This document shows positions 2,112 to 43,893 of a stretch of DNA of 64,000 nt, piece after piece. The notes below the pieces were generated by a model that was given only the letters and a program-made list of their open reading frames with translations, was not told the origin of the DNA and searched no databases. Positions within the stretch are counted from its first letter, which is position 1, and each line of letters opens with the position of its first letter. Both the position numbers and the translations under genes were made by a program. The DNA comes from an uncultured Planctomycetota bacterium (GTDB lineage: Bacteria > Planctomycetota > Planctomycetia > Gemmatales > Gemmataceae): positions 576,001 through 640,000 of the forward strand of contig CAWKHF010000002.1 of assembly GCA_963849325.1 (NCBI GenBank), read 5' to 3'.

Positions 2112-3053
2112 GTGCTAATATTGGGCGACCGGAAGTTTATCGAGGCCGCCTTCGAGTCCGAGGAGGAACTCGAACAGGTTGTCATCGCTAATTCCGAGTA
2201 CCTCTTCGGTCCGGCTTCCCTTTACTTTCCGAAAGCCCTTATCCGCACCAAGGATGGATTTGGGACAATCCCCGATGGGTTCGTGATCGATCTGACGGCG
2301 AGGCGTTGGTATATAGTCGAGGCCGAACTGGGCAAGCACAGCGTCTGGAGCCATATCGCCCCCCAAGTGGCCAAACAACTCATCGCCGCGATGAACCCTG
2401 CGTCCCGACAGCTTCTGATCGATTTAATCGTCGAAAAGGTCCGGGAAGACGAAGCCTCGATGGATAAATTCAGAGACGAAGGGATCGAGGTCATCGACAT
2501 CCGGCGCTTCCTTGGAGAGATTTTGGAGGGCAATCCAACCGTCGGTATGCCGATTAACGTCATCTCCAGCGACCTGCGGGAATGGGCGTCTACGCTCAAG
2601 GTCAGCGTCAAACTGTGGATTGTTCGCAAGCATGTCGAGTTCGGCCATCCGGAGCGAGTTCTGTTCGAGATCCCGGAAGAGTTTCGGCCAGCGTTGGATA
2701 CCGGAGTGGAGATGTCAGATACTTCGCGGCAGGCCCGGTACGATGTCAGCTTGTCTGACCTAATCCTGAGCGGGCTGCTGCGGAATGGCCAAAAACTGCA
2801 GTTGAACTGGAAACCACGCAATGGCGATAAGCGGGTTTTTGAGGGGCTAGTCAGGGATAGCGGGGAGATTGAGGTGCTAGGGAAGTCCTTTACCAGTCCC
2901 AGCTACGCGGCCGTGTACGCTCTTCAATCGACTGGCAGCAGTCGCACTACCGAGAACGGATGGGTCAAGTGGAAGACCGAAAGCGGAGTGTTACTTTCGA
3001 CACTCCGCGATCAGTATCTTCAATCAGTCGACGGGCGAGCAGACGGCGCCTGA
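2112..3053 (+). CDS. PD-(D/E)XK-type nuclease fused to a C-terminal RAMA-like domain
   Basis: GTG at 2112 follows GGAGG (track ORF starts at 2061). N-terminus has ESEEELEQ...IPDGFVID...YIVEAE; C-terminus LSDLILSGLL...G.IEV.G..FTSPS.AA...NGW..WK...LSTLR matches the RAMA pattern. More A/T-ending codons than neighbouring genes. Confidence 0.75.
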   Translation: MLILGDRKFIEAAFESEEELEQVVIANSEYLFGPASLYFPKALIRTKDGFGTIPDGFVIDLTARRWYIVEAELGKHSVWSHIAPQVAKQLIAAMNPASRQLLIDLIVEKVREDEASMDKFRDEGIEVIDIRRFLGEILEGNPTVGMPINVISSDLREWASTLKVSVKLWIVRKHVEFGHPERVLFEIPEEFRPALDTGVEMSDTSRQARYDVSLSDLILSGLLRNGQKLQLNWKPRNGDKRVFEGLVRDSGEIEVLGKSFTSPSYAAVYALQSTGSSRTTENGWVKWKTESGVLLSTLRDQYLQSVDGRADGA

Positions 3054-3105
3054 AATACGTTAGATGACGGCATTTCGGCGGAGCATTTTCTGTTTAGGGC
3101 GCCAG

Positions 3106-3202
3106 GCCGAATCATTCGATGCAACAGACAGGGCCGGCATTTTGGCTTTCCATGCTATATCACCCATCCCGCCGGCCTTGCTGCTGAGCTTGTTTGTTCC
3201 TG
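3106..3202 (+). mobile_element. degenerate attC-like integron recombination site
   Basis: GCCGAAT-5nt-GATGCAACAG...AGGGCCGGC-loop-GCCGGCCTT-GCTGCTGAGC-5nt-GTT: R''/L''/L'/R' layout with an extra G in L''. Confidence 0.55.
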
Positions 3203-4473
3203 TCACTTCCGTTCGATCTCCCGCAACGCCTCGGCGGCCCGCCGCCGCACCTCGGGATGCGCGGCCTTCTCCGCCGCGCGCAACGCCGGGACGGCACCTT
3301 TTGCCGCTTGCCCCATCTCGCCCAGGATGCGGACGACTTCGAGGCGGAGTAGCTTGTCCTTGTTCCGGAGAGCCGCCGTCAGCACGGGCAGGACGCTTTT
3401 GGCCTCGTGTTCGATCTGCCACAAACTCTGGGCGGCCTGGACGCGGACGCCCTCGTTCCGATCCGCCAGCAGCGGCGTCAGCTTGGACACCGCTGCGCGG
3501 GCCTCGGGTCCGATCAGCCCCAGCACGTGCGCCGCGTCGCCGCGCACGAACTTGTCCTCGTTCTTCAGCGCCGCGATGAGTACCGGCAAGACGGTGCGGG
3601 CCTGGTGGTCGATGCGCCACAGAGCCTCCGCCGCCTGCACGCGCACGCCTTCGTCGGCATCTTTCAGCGACTCGCGCAGCGCCGGGGCCGCCGCTCGCGC
3701 TTTGGCGCCGAAAGCTCCGAGGGCGCGAGCGGCGTCGGCGCGGACGCCCTCATGCACATCCTTCAAACAGGCACGCAGCGCCGGCACCGCCATTTCCGCC
3801 CCGGCGGCGACCTCACCCAGCGCCGCGGCGGCCTGGCCGCGCACGCCCTCGTCCTCGTCCTTCAGCAGCTGCACGAGCGCTCCCACGGCACCTTTCGCCT
3901 CGGTGCCCCTCTCGCCCAGGCCGGCCGCCGCGTTCAGGCGCACTCCAGCGTCTGCGTCCTGCGAGCGCCTCGATGAGGAGAGGGACCACCGCTCGGCCGC
4001 CGATTTCGCTCAGCGCCGCCGCCGCGTTCAGCCGGACGGTATGATCGCCGTCCTTGAGGAGTCGGCCCAGGGCCGGCACCGCTTTCTGGGCGGCGTCGCC
4101 CAGACCGCCCAGGGCGAAGGCGGCATGAGCGCGGCAGTCCGTGTTCGCGTCCTGCAGCGCCGCCAGCAGCGCCGGCAGCGCGGCGCGCTTCCGGGCCGAT
4201 CTCGCCCAGCGCATCCGCACACAGGCTGCGCACTGCCGCGTCCTTGTCGCGCAGCGCCGCGGTCAGCGCCGGCACGGCCGGCGCCGCGTCGCCATTGAGG
4301 TCGGCGCACCAACGCAGTAACGCCTGCGCCGCGCGAAGCCGCGTTTGATCGTCGCCGTGCCGCAGCGCCTCGACCCATTCCGGCAGCGACTTGTCGTCGG
4401 CGCCGACTTCACCGGCACGACCGACGCCCGACAGACCCAGGCTGATGAACGCGACAATGAGGACCGTTCTCAT
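3203..4473 (-). CDS. secreted HEAT-repeat (PBS-lyase-like) protein, frameshifted
   Basis: ORF pieces 3934..4473, 3813..4220 and 3203..3943 join into a signal peptide plus tandem LKD.D..VR..AA.ALG.IG repeats. Confidence 0.85.
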
Positions 4474-4516
4474 GCGTGACTCTCCGTGAGTTGTCTCCGG
4501 GTGGTTCTCCGCGTCA

Positions 4517-5269
4517 TCACCGACGTCGGTACACAGACGCGAAGTGCCGCATCGCCATGCGGTGGACGAACGCCGTGCGCTGCCGCACGTAGGACTGATA
4601 CTGTTGCAGCCAGCGCCGGCGCTGCTCCACGGCCATGCGGTAAAAGTTTTGTTGCCGCTGTACGGCGGAGCGATACTGCCTCATGGCCTGGGCCTGGGTC
4701 CGGGCTACTTCGCGCTGATAGTTCGCCGCCTGGCGCTGATAGTTCGACACATTCCGGGTGTAGTGATACGTCGTGTGCCGCTGCTGCCGGCCGCGATTGG
4801 AAGGGGCGTGACGGTTGTAGTTGGTGTTGCGGTGCTGCGCGGTGCGGACGTTGCGGTAGGCTCGGCCGTAGATGCTTTGCAGCATACGCTGCTGGGTTTG
4901 CTGCCGCTGTTTGAGGGCGGTGGCGTACTGCTGGCCGTATTTCTCGAACTCCGGCCAACTGATCTGGCCGTCCGTGTCCGTGTCCAGCGACCAGAGAAAG
5001 ACCAGGTCGGGGTACTTCGTCCGCGCCTGGTAGTAGAGCGGCGTCAGGTTGCCCTTGTCGTCGTACATGTCGCCTTCGGGCGGCTTGGCCTTGGGACCGC
5101 GGAAGTGCTTGGCCAACTCCTCCTTGTCGAGAAAACCGTCGTGATCGAGATCCCATTTGTCGAACAGGGCGTGCAGTTGCGCCTCGACTTGCGGATCCTT
5201 GGAAGGGGCCGCCGTCGCCAAAGTACCCAGGCTCAGGGCCAGGGTGAGGGGGAGACCGAAGCGAATCAT
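4517..5269 (-). CDS. secreted EF-hand protein with a Q/R/Y-rich C-terminal tail
   Basis: Signal peptide; EF-hand loops DLDHDGFLDKEE and DTDTDGQISWPE. Confidence 0.75.
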   Translation of the reverse strand: MIRFGLPLTLALSLGTLATAAPSKDPQVEAQLHALFDKWDLDHDGFLDKEELAKHFRGPKAKPPEGDMYDDKGNLTPLYYQARTKYPDLVFLWSLDTDTDGQISWPEFEKYGQQYATALKQRQQTQQRMLQSIYGRAYRNVRTAQHRNTNYNRHAPSNRGRQQRHTTYHYTRNVSNYQRQAANYQREVARTQAQAMRQYRSAVQRQQNFYRMAVEQRRRWLQQYQSYVRQRTAFVHRMAMRHFASVYRRR

Positions 5270-37332: not shown

Positions 37333-38100
37333 GTCGTCGGCCTGGAGGTTTCGGATTTCGGATTTCGTGCTTCGGATTTCCGCGTCGCGGCTCGGCGGAG
37401 ACGTTCGAGTTCCTCACCCTTGAGCCGCCGAGCCTTGCCGCGCGGCAGACGGTCGAGACGGACGGGCCCGATGGCGGTGCGACGCAGGACCATGACCTTG
37501 TGGCCCAGGCGGGCCAACATGCGGCGGACCTCGCGGTTCTTGCCCTCGTTGAGCACGATCTCCAGCCAGGTGCTTTCGCCCTGCGATTTGAGGCGCTTGA
37601 CGCGGCGGGCGCGGACATGGCCGTCGCTGAGCCAAACGCCCTTGAGCAGCTGCTGCAAGTCCTCGGCGTCGGGATGGCCGGCGACTTGCACCAGGTACGT
37701 CTTCTCGACGCCGAAGCGCGGGTGCATCAGGCGGTTGGCCAGGTCGCCGTCGTTGGTCAACAGCAGCAAGCCCTCGCTGTCCTCGTCGAGCCGGCCGACG
37801 GTGTAGACGCGCTGGCGGACGTGCGGCACGCAGATCGACGGCGCGCGGCCGGCCGGCGGGATCGTGATTGGTGCACAGGTAGCCGCGCGGCTTGTTGACC
37901 AGCCAGTAGACGAGCTTTTCGCCGTGCAGCGGCTGGCCGTCCACGCACACGGCCGCATCGGGTTCGACTTTCGTGCCCAGCTCGCGGACGGTTCGCCCGT
38001 CGACGGTGACGCGGCCGCGGAGGATCAGTTCTTCACAGTGGCGGCGCGAGCCGACGCCGGCGTGAGCCAGGAATTTGTTGAGGCGTTCCATGACCGTCAT
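37329..38100 (-). CDS. rRNA pseudouridine synthase (RsuA/RluB family), frameshifted
   Basis: [16 protein letters not shown] (S4 domain), [33 protein letters not shown]. Confidence 0.92.
37348..37380. repeat. heptamer (TTCGGAT) tandem repeat inside the 3' end of the pseudouridine synthase gene
   Basis: GTTTCGGATTTCGGATTTCGTGCTTCGGATTTC. Confidence 0.7.
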
Positions 38101-38287
38101 TGTAGCGAACGAGAAAGGGATGAGGAGTCAGAGGCAGCGTTTCACGTATTCGCTATGTCGGACCTGCCTTGCTGTTCCCGCTCAGCAAAGGGACAGCTTT
38201 TTCTTGGCGGCGATTGAACCGCGCGAGGATTGGCTTCGACTAGCAGAGAAGAAGTCCATCCGGCGGACCTGCACAGAGGTGGAAACC

Positions 38288-38851
38288 ATGACGGAAGCGG
38301 TGCGCCGCGCACGTGAGGAATGGCTCGTCCTCCGCTGTCAACTCGGCGAGCCGGAAGCGTTCGCCGAACTGGTCCGCGAGATGGAGCGGCCACTCCTGTA
38401 CTACGCGACGAAGCTCCTAAAGGACGAAAACAAGGCGTTCGACGTGCTCCAGGAGGTTTGGCTCACCGTCTTCCGGCAGGTGCGCCGATTGCGCGAGCCA
38501 CGGACGTTGCGGACCTGGCTCTATCGCATTGCGCACGGCCGGATCGTGGATCACATTCGCCAGGATTTGTCGCGCGGGAAGATCGAGAAGGCGCGAGCGG
38601 ATGCTCTGATGGAGGCGGAGGAGGGACCATCGTTCCGCGACGAGGACGCCGCCGCGATTCATCAAGCCCTCGATACGATCGATGCCCGGCATCGCGAAGT
38701 GCTCGTCCTGCACTTTCTGGAAGAGTTGTCGGTGGCGGAGGTGGCGTCCATCGTCGGCTGTCCGGAGGGCACGGTGAAATCGCGGATCCACCATGCCAAG
38801 AAAGCCTTGAAAGACGCCCTGGTGCGAGGTGGTTATGGGACCGAATCGTGA
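38288..38851 (+). CDS. ECF RNA polymerase sigma factor
   Basis: DVLQEVW, RTWLYRIA, HREVLVL, GCPEGTVKSRIH. Confidence 0.92.
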   Translation: MTEAVRRAREEWLVLRCQLGEPEAFAELVREMERPLLYYATKLLKDENKAFDVLQEVWLTVFRQVRRLREPRTLRTWLYRIAHGRIVDHIRQDLSRGKIEKARADALMEAEEGPSFRDEDAAAIHQALDTIDARHREVLVLHFLEELSVAEVASIVGCPEGTVKSRIHHAKKALKDALVRGGYGTES

Positions 38852-39242
38852 CAGCTTGCGCGACCGTCTGCTGGCGCAGTCCGTGCCGCAAGCGCAAAAA
38901 CTCGATGCGTATCGAAAGGAGGTTCAGGCCATGTTGGAACGCAATGAGAAACTACTCCGTCGGGAGAAGTGGGGTGTCACCGTGTTTTGGTTCGTGGCCG
39001 TGGTTTGCTTGACCGGCTTCCTCCTGTGGATGGGCTTTACGAACCCTATCGGAATGGACCCGAAGAGCTTGTCTTTCGCATCCATCGCTGCCTCCGTGCT
39101 TGTGATGGTCCTCTACGGGAGCCTTGAGTTGCTGAAACACTTCATCAACCGCAGCCGCGTAGAGATCCTCAAGGAAGTGAAAGGCATCGAGATCCAGCTT
39201 CTGGAGTTGCGCGAAGAGATGCGAACACGAAACAGCTCGTGA
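38835..39242 (+). CDS. two-TM membrane protein coupled to the ECF sigma (putative anti-sigma)
   Basis: Overlaps the sigma gene end; two hydrophobic segments and a C-terminal coiled coil. Confidence 0.65.
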   Translation: MGPNRDSLRDRLLAQSVPQAQKLDAYRKEVQAMLERNEKLLRREKWGVTVFWFVAVVCLTGFLLWMGFTNPIGMDPKSLSFASIAASVLVMVLYGSLELLKHFINRSRVEILKEVKGIEIQLLELREEMRTRNSS

Positions 39243-39256
39243 GTCCGTCGATGACC

Positions 39257-39299
39257 GCTCGCAGCGTCCGCAGGGGGCGCCCTTGCGGACGCTGCGGGC
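39257..39299. terminator. palindrome between convergent genes
   Basis: CGCAGCGTCCGCAGGG...CCTTGCGGACGCTGCG. Confidence 0.65.
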
Positions 39300-39310
39300 T
39301 AGTAAATTCC

Positions 39311-40051
39311 TCACACGCCCAGCGATTGCTTGAGATAACGCAATTCCTGCTGCAACTCGGCGACCGTCTGTTTCAGCGCCGCGATTTCGTCGTGCACCGT
39401 TCGCAGATCGGACTCCAACTCGGCTAACCGTTCGTCCGGACGGGAGGGAGTCACGGGAGGCGCGGCCGAGCGCGGCGACTCGAAGGCCGGTTCGGCGGCA
39501 ATCCTCGTCCGTAGGCGCTCCAGCTCGCGCGAATCGTGAAAACCGTGCGTCAGCATGGCGCCGCGCCGTTCCTCCGCCGTCAGGTAGACGACCAGCTTGC
39601 GCTCGACCAGCGGACGCAGCACGTTGCGCAGGGCGTCGAGGTCGTCGATCGGCTCCATGCGGCTGGCCCGGCCGCGCAGCTCGCCCTCGGTCTGCGGGCC
39701 GCGCAGCAGCAACTCGCCCAGCACGGCCAGATCGACCTTGTCCACGTGCCAGGCTTCGTAGAGGTTGTGCTTCCAGCGGATGACCCGGCCGCCGGTGATC
39801 TTGATGGCCAGACCCTTCTTCTGGCAGCGGACCAGCGTGTCCTCGACGTCGAGGTCGGACAGGTTGAGGAGCGGATCGCGGTTGGATTTCTGATTGCAGC
39901 CTGTAACCAGGGCGTTGATGCTCAGGGGATAGGTGTCGGGCGTGGTCTTGGCCTTCTCGACGAGGACGCCCAGCACGCGCCGCTCTTGCATGTCCAGGAC
40001 CGGCCAGGGGCCGGCCGCGCCGGGCGTAACCGCTTCCGTTTCGGGTGACAT
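39311..40051 (-). CDS. DUF480/YceH family protein
   Basis: RVLGVLVEKAKTTPDTYPLSINALVTGCNQKSNRDP, LLLRGPQT.GELRGRASRM. Confidence 0.92.
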   Translation of the reverse strand: MSPETEAVTPGAAGPWPVLDMQERRVLGVLVEKAKTTPDTYPLSINALVTGCNQKSNRDPLLNLSDLDVEDTLVRCQKKGLAIKITGGRVIRWKHNLYEAWHVDKVDLAVLGELLLRGPQTEGELRGRASRMEPIDDLDALRNVLRPLVERKLVVYLTAEERRGAMLTHGFHDSRELERLRTRIAAEPAFESPRSAAPPVTPSRPDERLAELESDLRTVHDEIAALKQTVAELQQELRYLKQSLGV

Positions 40052-40080
40052 GCGATCTCCTTATCTATCCATTGTTTTCA

Positions 40081-40137
40081 TTTCGCGGCGGCTTGCAGAG
40101 CCGCGCAGGGAGCGCGGCTCTGCAAGCCGCCGCGAAA
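40081..40137. repeat. REP-like palindrome
   Basis: TTTCGCGGCGGCTTGCAGAGCCGCGC...GCGCGGCTCTGCAAGCCGCCGCGAAA; a half copy CTCTGCAAGCCGCC occurs near 28895. Confidence 0.8.
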
Positions 40138-40141
40138 CAAT

Positions 40142-41606
40142 CTACCCCTTGAGAAACTCCCTCCTGTGCCGTTTGTACGCCTCGACGCCCGGCTGGCCAT
40201 ACGGATTGACGCCCATCAGCCGCCCTTCAACGACCGTGGCCAGCATGAGCATCTGCAACAGCTGCCCCATCGTGTGCTCCGACAGCGTCGGCAGTACCAG
40301 GTCCGCCGTCGGCCGAGCCGCCTCGTGGTACGCCTGGTTGGCGCCGCGCAGCGCCGCGCCCAGGATGTCCGGCAGCCCCTTGCGATTGTACTGGTTCAGT
40401 TCGTCCTCGTTGTGGTCGGCCATCTGCACGAGGATGGGCACCGCCTTGGCGTTCTTAACGACGAGGTTATTGATGAGCCGATCGCGCGGCCCGTCCTGGT
40501 GTTGCTGGCCGCGAGCATGCAGGTCGCGGGAGCCAACCATCGTCAACGGCGTCGGGCCACGCCCCTGCTTGCCCAGACTTTGGGCCACCAGCTGATCGTA
40601 CCAATGGCCCACCGCTTCGAGCTTTTTCGACCACACCGACAGAACGCGCAGCGGCTTGTGATATTCCTCGGCCATCAGGTAATTGACGCCGGCGAATTGC
40701 AATACCGGGTTGCGCTCGAACGGCTCTTCGAGGAAGCGCTTGGTCATCGCGGCGGCGCCGAGCAGCAGGGCGCGCACGTCCAGGCCCATGACGGCGGCGG
40801 GCAGCAGACCGGCGGCGGTGAAGACGGAGAAACCCGCGCCGACGTTGTCCGGTGCGGTCAAAACGTCCGCGTCGCCGTGGCCGTGCGGCTCCGAACAGCC
40901 GGCGCAGCGGACTCTCGCCGGCGGTAACGGCCGCGAACAGCTCCGTCAGCCATTCCGAGCGCAGACCGTAATACTCGGCCGCCTCGCGGCGAAAGACGCG
41001 CAGGGCGACGCCCGGCTCCAGTGCGTCGCCGTCCTTGTCCACGGCCACGACCGCCCAGCGCTCCTCGCGCTGGTCGGGATCGACGCAGGTGATTTGCAGC
41101 AGATCGAGCAGGTTTTGCAGGGCGTCGTTGTCGGCGCTGTCGCCCTCGAAGTAGATACGCGGCACGCCCAGCCGCGTCTCGGGCGGCAACTCGTTGTGAT
41201 AGCGGCTGCACAGGGCCTCGAAGAGCGCGCGCGGACCCAGCACGTCGCCGCCGATGCCGAGAAAGACGACGCGATCGACCTGTTCGCGCAGGCGGGCGGC
41301 CAGGCGCAGGACGCGGCCGAGGTCGCTGGCCTCGCCCTTGCGGCGGTGATTGTCGAGGGTGGTCTGCGGCAGGTCGATGAAGCCGGCGTCCAGCGGCTGC
41401 ATCTCCGGCGGCACGTTGCGCATCTCGCGCTCGGCGGCCACCTGGCTGCGGCACTGCATCAACCGCGGAACCAGTTCCTTGAGCCGGCCTGGAGACAGGC
41501 AGTGACGGGCGCGCAGCTCGGCGACCGCGTCCCACTCCTCCCCTGCCGGTGCAAACAGTGATTGGTAGTGATAGGTGACTGCTTCATCGGGCAGTTCCAT
41601 GCTCAT
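40142..41606 (-). CDS. glucose-6-phosphate isomerase homolog with altered active-site motifs, frameshifted
   Basis: GFIDLP, LGIGG, QL...SLGK, DLH..GQ, QPGVEAYK indicate the PGI fold, but GIGGD, DKDG and QLVAQ deviate from the consensus. Confidence 0.85.
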
Positions 41607-41799
41607 GAAAGGCACCTCTCGCGGAGACGGCCGAGCGCGCCCGGCCGGAGCGAATCGAACGCCATCGGCTCTCCCGAGAGGAGGGGGACTCGAATCGGAC
41701 GGCGAGCGCCGCCGCTCGAACCGAGCTGCTGAGGGAGAGGGGCAAAAAACCGCTCGTCGATACTATACTTCCGAAGTTGGGGTCGGTAAACTCCAGGAC

Positions 41800-43006
41800 A
41801 TGAACATGCACGAATTGATGCGCGAGCTGCGCGAAGACAACGCCACGAAAATCGTCCTGGTGGTGGCCGACGGCCTGGGCGGACTGCCCCTGGAGCCGGG
41901 CGGCAAGACCGAGCTGGAGACGGCGCGGACGCCGAACCTCGACGCCTGCGCCCGCGACGGCGTGTGCGGCCTGAGTATGCCGGTGTTGCCGGGCATCACG
42001 CCGGGCAGCGGGCCGGGCCATCTCGGCCTGTTCGGCTACGACCCGCTGGAGTACCGCATCGGTCGCGGCATCCTGGAGGCGCTGGGCATTCACTTCGAGG
42101 TCGGCCCGCGCGACGTGGCCACACGCGGCAACTTCTGCACGCTCGACGCCAAGGGTCTCATCAGCGACCGCCGCGCCGGCCGGCCGACGACGGAGCGCTG
42201 CGTCGAGATGTGCAAACGGCTGCAAACGATTCGCGTACCCGGCGTCGAGATGTTCGTCGAGCCGGTGCGCGAACATCGCTTCGTCGTCGTCTTCCGCGGC
42301 GAGGAACTGGGCGACGCGGTCAACGACACCGATCCGCAGCAGACCGGCCACGCTCCGCTGTCGGCCAAGGGCGCCGACGCCGCCTCGCAGAAAACAGCCG
42401 ACGCCGTCAATCGCTTCGTCGCCGAGGCCAACAAGGTGCTCCACGAGCACGCTCCGACCAACGGCGTGACGCTGCGCGGCTTCGCTCGCTATCCCAAGAT
42501 CGCCACCATGCAGCGACCTCTACGGCCTGCGCGCCGCGGCCATCGCCGTCTATCCGATGTACAAGGGTCTGGCCCGCCTTGTCGGCATGGACGTGCTCGA
42601 CGCCGGCTCGACGCTCAACGATCAGGTAGCGACGCTCCAGCGCGTCTGGGGCCAGTACGATTTCTTCTTCCTGCACTACAAGTACACCGACAGCACCGGC
42701 GAGGACGGCAACTTCGCGGCCAAGGTCGAGATGATCGAGCGCTTCGACGCCGAGATCGCCAAGGTGCGGGCGCTGGAGCCGGACGTGTTCATCGTCACCG
42801 GCGATCACAGTACGCCGAGCAAGCTCAAGAGTCACAGCTGGCATCCGGTGCCGGTGGTGCTGGTGGCGAAGTCGTGCCGGACGGACGCCGTGACGGAGTT
42901 TGGCGAGTCGCAATGTCTGCGTGGCGGACTGGGCCAGTTCCAGGCGATGTATCTGCTGCCGTTGGCGATGGCCCACGCCGGCCGGCTGGGCAAGTACGGG
43001 GCATGA
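41800..43006 (+). CDS. apgM: 2,3-bisphosphoglycerate-independent phosphoglycerate mutase (ApgM type), frameshifted
   Basis: VADGLGG, TELETARTPNLD, PGSGPGHL, RGNF, FLHYKYTDS.GEDG, VTGDHSTP, HSWHPVP. Confidence 0.92.
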
Positions 43007-43893
43007 CGTGGCCGATTTCCTCGAGCGCTGCATTCCGGCCGCGTGCTGCTGATGGACGGCGCGATGGGCACCCAGTTGCAGCGCAGGGGGTTGCCGTCCG
43101 GCGCAGTGCGGCGAAGCGTGGAACACGAGGCGCCCGGCAACGGTACGAGCTGTCCATGACAGCTATGTTGCCGCCGGCGCCGAACGTCCTCCTGACGAAC
43201 ACCTTTCAATCGCATTCCCTTCGCCTCGCCCACTTCGGGCTGGGAGAACGCCTGGAGGAGATCAACGGAGGGGCCGTGCGCCTGGCGCGCCAGGCGGCCG
43301 AACGTTCGCGCTTTGTCCTCGGCGATATCGGCCCCATCATCCATCCGAACGAGAAGGAGGAATTCACGGATGCCAAGCTGCTGGGGCGAGTGCTCGCCTC
43401 TCTGGATGGAGTCGATGGCTTTCTGTTCGAGACGTGCTCCAGTCCGCGCGCTCTCTCGGCGGTGCAATACGCCTTCCATCGCGTCGCCGAGGTCGAGACG
43501 CCGCTGCTGTTGTCGCTGACCTATCTCCGCTCGCCGACGGGCCAACTCGTCACACGCAGCGGCCATGCGCCCGAAACATATGCTCGGCACGCGGAACGTC
43601 ATGGCGTCGCCGCCCTGGGCGTCAACTGCGGCCGCGACATCGACATGGACGACATCCTCGACATCATCCGCCGCTATCGCCGCGTCACGGACTTGCCGCT
43701 GTTCGCCCGGCCCAATGCGGGAACGCCCACCAAACAAGGCGAGCGCTGGATCTATCCGCACACGCCGCAGGCGATGGCGACGCGACTGCCGGAATTGCTG
43801 GACGCCGGTGTGAGCATGGTCGGCGGTTGTTGCGGCACCACGCCCGAACACATTGCGGCGTTCCGCGTCGTTCTTGCGGAGCGTGCTGGTTAG
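43003..43893 (+). CDS. homocysteine S-methyltransferase family protein, frameshifted
   Basis: LMDGAMGTQL, TNTF, GDIGP, ET, GVNC, PNAG, VGGCCGTTPEHI. Confidence 0.88.
   Translation: MTWPISSSAAFRPRAADGRRDGHPVAAQGVAVRRSAAKRGTRGARQRYELSMTAMLPPAPNVLLTNTFQSHSLRLAHFGLGERLEEINGGAVRLARQAAERSRFVLGDIGPIIHPNEKEEFTDAKLLGRVLASLDGVDGFLFETCSSPRALSAVQYAFHRVAEVETPLLLSLTYLRSPTGQLVTRSGHAPETYARHAERHGVAALGVNCGRDIDMDDILDIIRRYRRVTDLPLFARPNAGTPTKQGERWIYPHTPQAMATRLPELLDAGVSMVGGCCGTTPEHIAAFRVVLAERAG

Follow-up and report, generated by a model that had tools for sequence, protein, structure and literature searches.

The locus described here lies in a window of 64,000 nucleotides, the whole stretch of DNA that was analyzed, from the genome of an uncultured planctomycete of the Gemmataceae (contig CAWKHF010000002.1), and it centers on a minus-strand gene of about 485 codons that encodes a homolog of glucose-6-phosphate isomerase (PGI) in which the catalytic Glu and the phosphate-binding residues have been replaced. 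We refer to the window's own genome as G000, to related genomes by other G numbers and to homologous loci by L numbers; type C designates the PGI subfamily of the window, type B a form of ~530 residues, and type A the classic long form. The features of the gene, in positions of the window, are as follows.

40142..41606, minus strand: type C PGI-like gene (putative pseudo-PGI), ~485 codons, assigned from its translation, PF00342, NF010697 and orthologs
41246-41244, minus strand: GAC, Asp replacing the phosphate-binding Ser of GIGGS (codon read, congener alignment)
41039-41022, minus strand: D-K-D-G-D-A replacing S-K-S-G-x-T, with both Ser changed to Asp, Thr to Ala, and Lys kept
40886..40888, minus strand: one extra base splitting the frame, seen as a one-column gap against three orthologs; probable assembly indel
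40834-40832, minus strand: GGT, Gly replacing the Arg of GGRFS (codon read, congener alignment)
40582-40580, minus strand: CAA, Gln replacing the catalytic Glu (ESLGK to QSLGK), aligned with the Glu of GESEGK in 1b0z
40519-40517, minus strand: CAT, the catalytic His, retained in G000 and lost in four of eight congeners (codon read)
40174-40172, minus strand: AAA, the active-site Lys, retained in eight of eight congeners (codon read)

In the minus-strand translation the stop codon TAG falls at 40144-40142 and ATG codons occur at 41606 and 41600; the start is likely the ATG at 41600, which gives MELPDE as in the orthologs, or the one at 41606. The N-terminal part of the gene (41606 to ~40897) carries the motifs FLGIGGDVLG and VAVDKDGDALEP, and the C-terminal part (~40888 to 40145) carries DNVGAGFSVFT, QLVAQSLGK, RDLHARGQ and GVEAYKR. 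Membership in the PGI family was evident from the C-terminal part, which matched PF00342 at 50.2 bits against a gathering cutoff of 22; the N-terminal part alone gave no match in the Pfam profile search. The best NCBIfam model was that of the Bacillus-type PGI (NF010697), which scored 56.8 and 164.1 bits on the two pieces against a cutoff of 443. The intact ortholog from the congener G009 reached 226.6 bits, also short of this equivalog cutoff, and since canonical type C proteins likewise fall below it (306 and 313 bits for L024 and L039), the test alone is not diagnostic.

Residue equivalences were taken from a phmmer search against the PDB, in which the intact G009 ortholog aligned one to one with the Bacillus stearothermophilus PGI 1b0z (E 7.6e-53). 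GIGGSYLG, ISKSGTTTEP, GGRYS, GESEGK, DLHS and GVEAYK of 1b0z, six motifs in all, were in register with the ortholog, which confirms that in the window protein Asp stands for Ser, Gly for Arg and Gln for Glu. In the ligand-bound structure of Bdellovibrio bacteriovorus PGI (BbPGI), the phosphate is held by S72, S118, S120 and T123 together with the backbone of K119 and S120, and isomerization is mediated by R180, E256, H285 and K398 (PMC8354745). Compared with what a functional enzyme of EC 5.3.1.9 carries, the window protein has Gln where the catalytic Glu would be (E256 in BbPGI and Glu357 in the rabbit enzyme), D, D, D and A for the phosphate-binding hydroxyls, and Gly for the Arg of GGR(F/Y)S, a residue that is kept in four of the eight genus sequences; the catalytic His and the C-terminal Lys are both in place. 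A sequence-only reading of this DNA had described a PGI homolog devoid of its catalytic base and phosphate-binding hydroxyls; the register with 1b0z and the codon reads bear it out, and the motifs that it quoted (GIGGD, VGAGFS, QLVAQSLGK, DLH and VEAYK among others), along with the CAA codon at 40582-40580, were all found in the translation as it gave them.

Loss of the catalytic Glu is common to the window's genus, where all eight full-length type C copies were without it, the column being occupied by Q in G000, G009 and G006 and by S in G010, G001, G005, G008 and G004. A partial copy in G007 also lacked the Glu (ASSLGK). At the codon level, GAR of the outgroups gave way to CAR in three genus members and to TCR in five. 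The sister family differed in that 13 of 13 type C proteins were canonical (GIGGS[YFS], [IV]SKSGxT[LI]ET, [VI]GGRFS, ESLGK, RDLHS, YK), as were the type C protein in one genome of another family in the same class and those of all 38 loci from L094 to L131 (Pirellulaceae, Thermoguttaceae, Mariniblastus and similar). The residues present at five other positions in the eight genus sequences were:

Ser of GIGGS: D, P, S, S, S, M, C, C
First Ser of SKSG: D, A, S, S, D, D, G, G
Arg of GGR: G, D, R, R, P, P, R, R
His: H, H, H, H, P, S, Y, Y
C-terminal Lys: K in all eight

The substitutions are not read errors, since independent congener assemblies share the loss of the Glu (CAG in two, TCR in five).

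The same state was well represented among the 120 database clusters nearest to the G009 protein (identity of at least 72%), of which 56 were Glu-less, with proteins of 439-557 residues, and 28 were canonical at all checked sites. Across the Glu-less set (n = 63), D or E followed SKSG in 56 sequences, the first Ser was D in 28 and the Thr was A in 41; the SKSG Lys was kept in 56, the loop Gly in 60 and the C-terminal Lys in 54. Glu-less sequences carried Q, S, T, P or A at the Glu column and H, P, Y, S or A at the His column. The acidic residue after SKSG in 56 of the 63 is the one trace of coherence in the pocket, and it was also present in 11 of 64 clusters that keep the Glu and in G022, G015 and G018; it may predate the Glu loss. 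The acidic residue may also plug the former phosphate site, an idea that we hold loosely because the residue is present in some canonical relatives.

Altered copies that keep the Glu were observed in other Gemmataceae genera. In G016 (L020) the Ser of GIGGS, the SKSG Lys, the Thr, the His and the C-terminal Lys are altered; in G019 (L037) the Ser/Thr positions and the Lys are; and in G022 (L015) and G023 (L038) Lys has become Arg. These partial losses are independent of one another, and their hosts also carry a second PGI. A single change of Glu to Ala in an otherwise canonical protein (L085, from a metagenome-assembled genome, MAG) and a change of Glu to Gly in a fragment (L093) may be real or errors.

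Columns invariant in canonical proteins yet variable in the Glu-less ones were limited to G117, S119, S188, S190, G255 and H361 (G009 numbering), all within active-site motifs; in that contrast the canonical group is partly defined by the same residues, and it was hence repeated with groups set by taxonomy and with nine sites fixed beforehand from the literature (S72, S118, K119, S120, T123, R180, E256, H285 and K398 of BbPGI). In the genus the nine sites held a mean of 3.0 distinct residues versus 1.57 at the other columns. None of 20000 random nine-column sets reached a mean of 3.0, a count that describes the alignment and is not a probability, the sequences being kin. Seven of the nine sites showed 5, 4, 3, 3, 4, 2 and 4 different residues in the eight genus sequences, and 59% of all columns were invariant across the genus. 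The sister family presented the reverse, with all nine sites invariant versus 2.88 distinct residues elsewhere.

The gene is under strong purifying selection. Ratios of nonsynonymous to synonymous substitution rates (dN/dS, NG86 method) lay between 0.075 and 0.199 in all 28 genus pairs, with dS up to ~1.0-1.3, and over the same 15 pairs the median was 0.114 for type C versus 0.082 for type B. Maximum likelihood (ML) estimates of omega (GY+F3X4) were 0.097 for the dead type C (eight sequences, 475 codons) versus 0.062 for type B (seven sequences, 524 codons); two canonical type C sets gave 0.029 and 0.050 on saturated trees (length 12-13), which makes this last comparison a rough one. The open reading frame (ORF) was intact in seven of seven short-read congener assemblies. 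Two marks of a pseudoenzyme, homology with loss of essential catalytic residues and maintenance by purifying selection, are both present. The sequence-only reading had asked whether homologs conserve D/D/D/Q with dN/dS below 1; the ratios are indeed far below 1, but the D/D/D/Q combination is private to G000 and there is no conserved rewiring.

A canonical pgi elsewhere in the genome, for which the sequence-only reading had advised a search, was recovered by a profile search of the genome's contigs as a second PF00342 match at C8:81178-82430. Read across frame breaks, this copy has GIGGS, SKSGGTPE, GGRTS, ESLGK, DQH and GVEAGKK and is a canonical type B enzyme, a form found in 10 of the 10 congeners searched. 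Three PGI types (A, B and C) occur across the order, and a search with the C-terminal part returned a strong type C ortholog in 35 of 41 related genomes, the closest of which are, by record title, Gemmataceae, Gemmatales or Planctomycetota MAGs. Type C was the only PGI detected in 14 genomes and was canonical in all 14; the cupin PGI was matched in one of the 41 genomes, which was not among these 14, and bact-PGI_C was matched in none of the 41. Among the 34 genomes read, altered type C copies occurred only where there was a second PGI, in 13 of 20 such genomes, cases that amount to roughly five independent events (about one full loss and four partial).

Two further observations concern PGI genes of the relatives. 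In G013, assembled as one contig, an intact type A PGI is accompanied ~170 kb away by pieces of another type A copy, interrupted by TGA and TAG stops (C1:3562822-3563408), and this looks like a PGI pseudogene remnant. Open frames of ~980-1076 residues, in which a PGI domain occupies the later part, were seen in G025 (C55), G028 (C102) and G009 (C187); they probably represent transaldolase-PGI fusions, since the models with weak matches to type C include NF007080.

An ML tree built from 33 type C sequences placed the genus in one clade (96/93) with a short stem of 0.082, sister to the partly altered G023, and grouped the Ser-bearing sequences in a monophyletic subclade within it (100/96). The nesting of this clade inside the type C tree, together with a divergently oriented apgM (archaeal-type cofactor-independent phosphoglycerate mutase), places the genus proteins in the type C orthogroup. 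Change does not appear to have been concentrated on the genus stem (0.082 versus terminal branches of 0.02-0.11). One change of Glu to Gln at the base of the genus followed by drift is suggested, because the GAR/CAR/TCR codon pattern fits it; two database clusters have Pro at the Glu column, which could be an intermediate.

The protein retains the whole PGI fold. We modeled the unbroken congener protein of G009 in place of the window's broken one, and AlphaFold2 with a 74-row alignment returned a mean predicted local distance difference test (pLDDT) of 89.2 and a predicted template modeling score (pTM) of 0.91. The weakest stretches were residues 171-180 and, near what was once the catalytic loop and His, residues 341-370, where the 10-residue block means of pLDDT were 71, 55 and 65. 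In a Foldseek search with this model all top PDB matches were PGIs, with template modeling (TM) scores of 0.84/0.90 to 3ifs, which identifies the fold as that of PGI.

The N-terminal part (41606-40897) and the C-terminal part (40888-40145) of the window gene lie in different frames, and the base responsible is the sole gap over 1459 aligned bases against the type C gene of G009; the sequence-only reading had made no mention of this break. Against G009, single-base gaps numbered one in apgM, one in type C and seven in the type B PGI (at least two net frame changes); tblastn read the type B PGI of G000 in three frames, type C in two, and apgM in two (frames 1 and 2). The assembly comprises 14 contigs and is 84.7% complete. 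Because genuine breaks in three central glycolytic genes at once are implausible, we took the frame break as assembly noise, and the extra base at 40886-40888 is likely a sequencing or assembly indel, judging from these alignments, and not decay. A screen of public runs found none that contains the organism (best word share 0.09) and listed no RNA run with the locus; four soil runs gave short contigs of relatives at ~90% identity and left the bin 40856-40909, where the frame is split, uncovered. Single-base indels are frequent in coding sequence here (window 37414-43893, C8:80990-82560), and gene calls on this assembly consequently need frameshift-aware handling.

Taken together, these comparisons make it probable that the window gene is a selectively maintained PGI pseudoenzyme with a putative non-catalytic role, descended from an active type C enzyme. 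The type C ancestor would have been an active Planctomycetota PGI, always adjoining apgM; activity of the ancestor is suggested because type C is canonical in the sister family, at 38 of 38 further loci and in 14 of 14 genomes where it is the only PGI. The genus appears to have lost its proton-transfer Glu a single time, at its base (GAR to CAR, with TCR arising afterwards in one subclade), and the phosphate-binding Ser/Thr, the Arg and often the His have diverged from species to species since then. Binding and isomerization of hexose 6-phosphate would then be gone, with PGI flux presumably carried by type B, and catalysis would have been lost after functional replacement by type B while the scaffold was retained for a non-catalytic role. 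By analogy with dead paralogs that turned into subunits of active enzymes, the predicted role is most likely that of a structural or regulatory partner in sugar-phosphate metabolism. We put at about even the chance that a whole clade of Gemmataceae (56 of the 120 nearest clusters) has kept such a PGI-derived pseudoenzyme since a single loss of the Glu, as a candidate regulatory or scaffolding subunit with acidic residues in the former phosphate site.

Several results weigh against a maintained pseudoenzyme. From the omega values, constraint in the dead clade is weaker than in active type C by a factor of perhaps two to three, though its evolution is still far from neutral. A comparison of Glu-less with canonical sequences for type-II fixed sites yielded none at 90% and only nine scattered ones at 80%, with no clade-specific surface. 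Type C was not found in G011 (96% complete), in G025 and G028 (both 94%) or in the congener G003 (82%), all of which have another PGI, and any non-catalytic role is on this account not universal; it was likewise not found in G014 (75% complete), and G020 (75%) gave no match. The association of altered copies with a second PGI counts as only the roughly five events noted above.

The alternatives differ in how they account for the same residues. The sequence-only reading had left a choice between a pseudoenzyme and a neofunctionalized protein; the former fits the data, but the coherent rewired D/D/D/Q pocket does not, given that the residues vary among the eight genus members. In the neofunctionalized form, which we regard as unlikely, the acidic residues would form a pocket that takes a non-phosphorylated or cationic ligand and the protein would be a binder, a sensor or an enzyme of different chemistry. 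The three Asp in the former phosphate site of G000, the D or E that follows SKSG in 56 of 63 Glu-less sequences and the Asp for the first Ser in 28 of 63 speak for such a pocket, as do the continued conservation of the SKSG Lys (56/63), the C-terminal Lys (54/63) and the loop Gly (60/63) and the strong purifying selection. However, residues vary at seven of the nine sites among the eight genus sequences, the Glu and His columns are variable with no new residue fixed in the pocket, and the acidic residue after SKSG is present in canonical relatives too. Because the former active-site residues vary among congeners, the pattern argues for relaxed constraint on the pocket rather than for a new conserved ligand site.

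A relic close to loss, in which type C became dispensable once a second PGI was present and has since decayed slowly and neutrally, with the frameshift as its first real disruption, was already disfavored and is in our estimate doubtful. It would explain the degenerate catalytic residues, the broken frame in the G000 assembly, the genomes in which type C was not found (G011, G025, G028 and G003) and an omega above that of the canonical type C sets. It sits poorly with dN/dS of 0.075-0.199 in 28 of 28 pairs at dS of ~1.0-1.3, with an ML omega (0.097) near that of a working PGI (0.062), with 59% invariant columns and an ORF intact in all seven short-read congeners, and with at least 56 Glu-less database clusters at 439-557 residues; moreover, single-base indels also split apgM and the canonical PGI in the G000 assembly. 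Still more improbable is a protein that continues to work as a PGI, or as a weak or specialized hexose-phosphate isomerase that uses other residues. The intact fold, the Lys in eight of eight and the His in four of eight genus sequences, and the name of glucose-6-phosphate isomerase in public records are compatible with activity, but the proton-transfer Glu is absent in all eight with no conserved replacement, the four phosphate-binding hydroxyls and the Arg have been lost to varying extents, none of these sites varies in genomes with type C as the sole PGI, and model confidence dips at residues 341-370. It is very improbable that the unusual residues arose as errors in the sequencing or assembly of noisy long reads: the assembly does contain many single-base indels and is 84.7% complete, but the changes are substitutions and not indels, only the frame break looks artefactual, and changes of the same class recur in seven independent congener assemblies and at least 56 database clusters.

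The gene is flanked by the following features.

41800..43006, plus strand: apgM, archaeal-type cofactor-independent phosphoglycerate mutase, matched by PF10143 and PF01676 in two pieces on either side of a single-base indel near 42512
39311..40051, minus strand: DUF480 gene, downstream, PF04337 at 166.8 bits, intact and in one frame

The position of the PGI homolog divergent from glycolytic apgM had been pointed out from the window alone and is not peculiar to it, since 13 of 17 loci share the arrangement, as do 43 of 80 loci from species representatives, Pirellulales among them, the latter count being a lower bound from crude motif-based detection. The pairing of type C with apgM is old. The DUF480 neighbor was considered as a clue to the dead state and rejected, as it also lies downstream of canonical type C genes (L059, L060, L063). 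At L059, in a Gemmatales MAG, a 943-residue stop-to-stop frame (2479-4818) with a canonical type C sequence runs into the DUF480 pattern, which may be a fusion or simply a frame left open by chance in GC-rich DNA. Elsewhere in the window, 38288-39239 holds a sigma factor of extracytoplasmic function (ECF) type (Sigma70_r2, r4_2) followed by an overlapping ORF of 137 residues with no Pfam match, possibly an anti-sigma factor; an ORF with an S4 domain (37414-38100) has its Pfam match in the first 49 residues only; and an open frame at 41575-43893 joins the 5' part of apgM to a homocysteine S-methyltransferase domain (43072-43890).

Among known systems the best match in both sequence and structure is the small PGI of Bacillus type (1b0z/2pgi, 3ifs, 3ff1; NF010697/PRK14097), from which the intact congener protein differs by an N-terminal extension (query residue 90 aligned to residue 54 of 1b0z) and the genus proteins by replacement of the catalytic Glu, the phosphate-binding Ser/Thr and the Arg. 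The compact PGI of Bdellovibrio bacteriovorus (7nss/7ntg; PMC8354745) matches by sequence (E 4.5e-21) and by fold, and at its nine positions the window protein has six changed (D, D, D, A, G, Q), with the two Lys and the His remaining. Closer still in descent are the canonical type C proteins of the Gemmatales sister family and of Pirellulales, which are orthologs of the same length with the same divergent apgM, and which, unlike the genus copies, keep all nine sites without exception. Type C proteins are 57-76% identical in the C-terminal part within the order, and the full-length G009 copy is 44-51% identical to the Pirellulales-like loci.

Dead paralogs of metabolic enzymes that act as subunits are exemplified by HisZ, a regulator of ATP phosphoribosyltransferase that resembles histidyl-tRNA synthetase (HisRS), and by PyrC', an inactive dihydroorotase in the aspartate transcarbamoylase of Pseudomonas. 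The window protein resembles these in that a paralog of a core metabolic enzyme has kept its fold, lost its catalytic residues and remained under selection while its pathway still contains an active enzyme; it differs in that HisZ and PyrC' have a known partner and function, whereas any partner of the window protein is putative. That a PGI fold can carry a function independent of isomerization is indicated by vertebrate PGI acting as autocrine motility factor or neuroleukin, as named in PDB titles and in the reference list of the Bdellovibrio report (PMC8354745), though the moonlighting vertebrate protein is the same active enzyme outside animal cells and not a dead bacterial paralog.

We found no paper on a PGI pseudoenzyme or dead PGI paralog in open-access papers and preprints, a coverage that does not amount to proof of absence, and if our reading is correct this would be the first dead PGI paralog described in bacteria, as far as the searches show. 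Planctomycetota type C, its canonical members included, is covered by no NCBIfam equivalog. Proteins of the Glu-less clade are called glucose-6-phosphate isomerase in public records, and owing to this label metabolic reconstructions of these soil planctomycetes would count the dead copy as a PGI. The partly degenerate copies would, under the same reading, form a natural series of intermediates in the conversion of a glycolytic enzyme after a second isozyme arrives. The locus is a natural experiment in which, with a second isozyme of a core glycolytic enzyme present, the catalytic sites have gone from the most conserved to the most variable, and such variable catalytic sites on a constrained scaffold point to a putative, so far unrecognized non-catalytic role of the PGI fold in bacteria.

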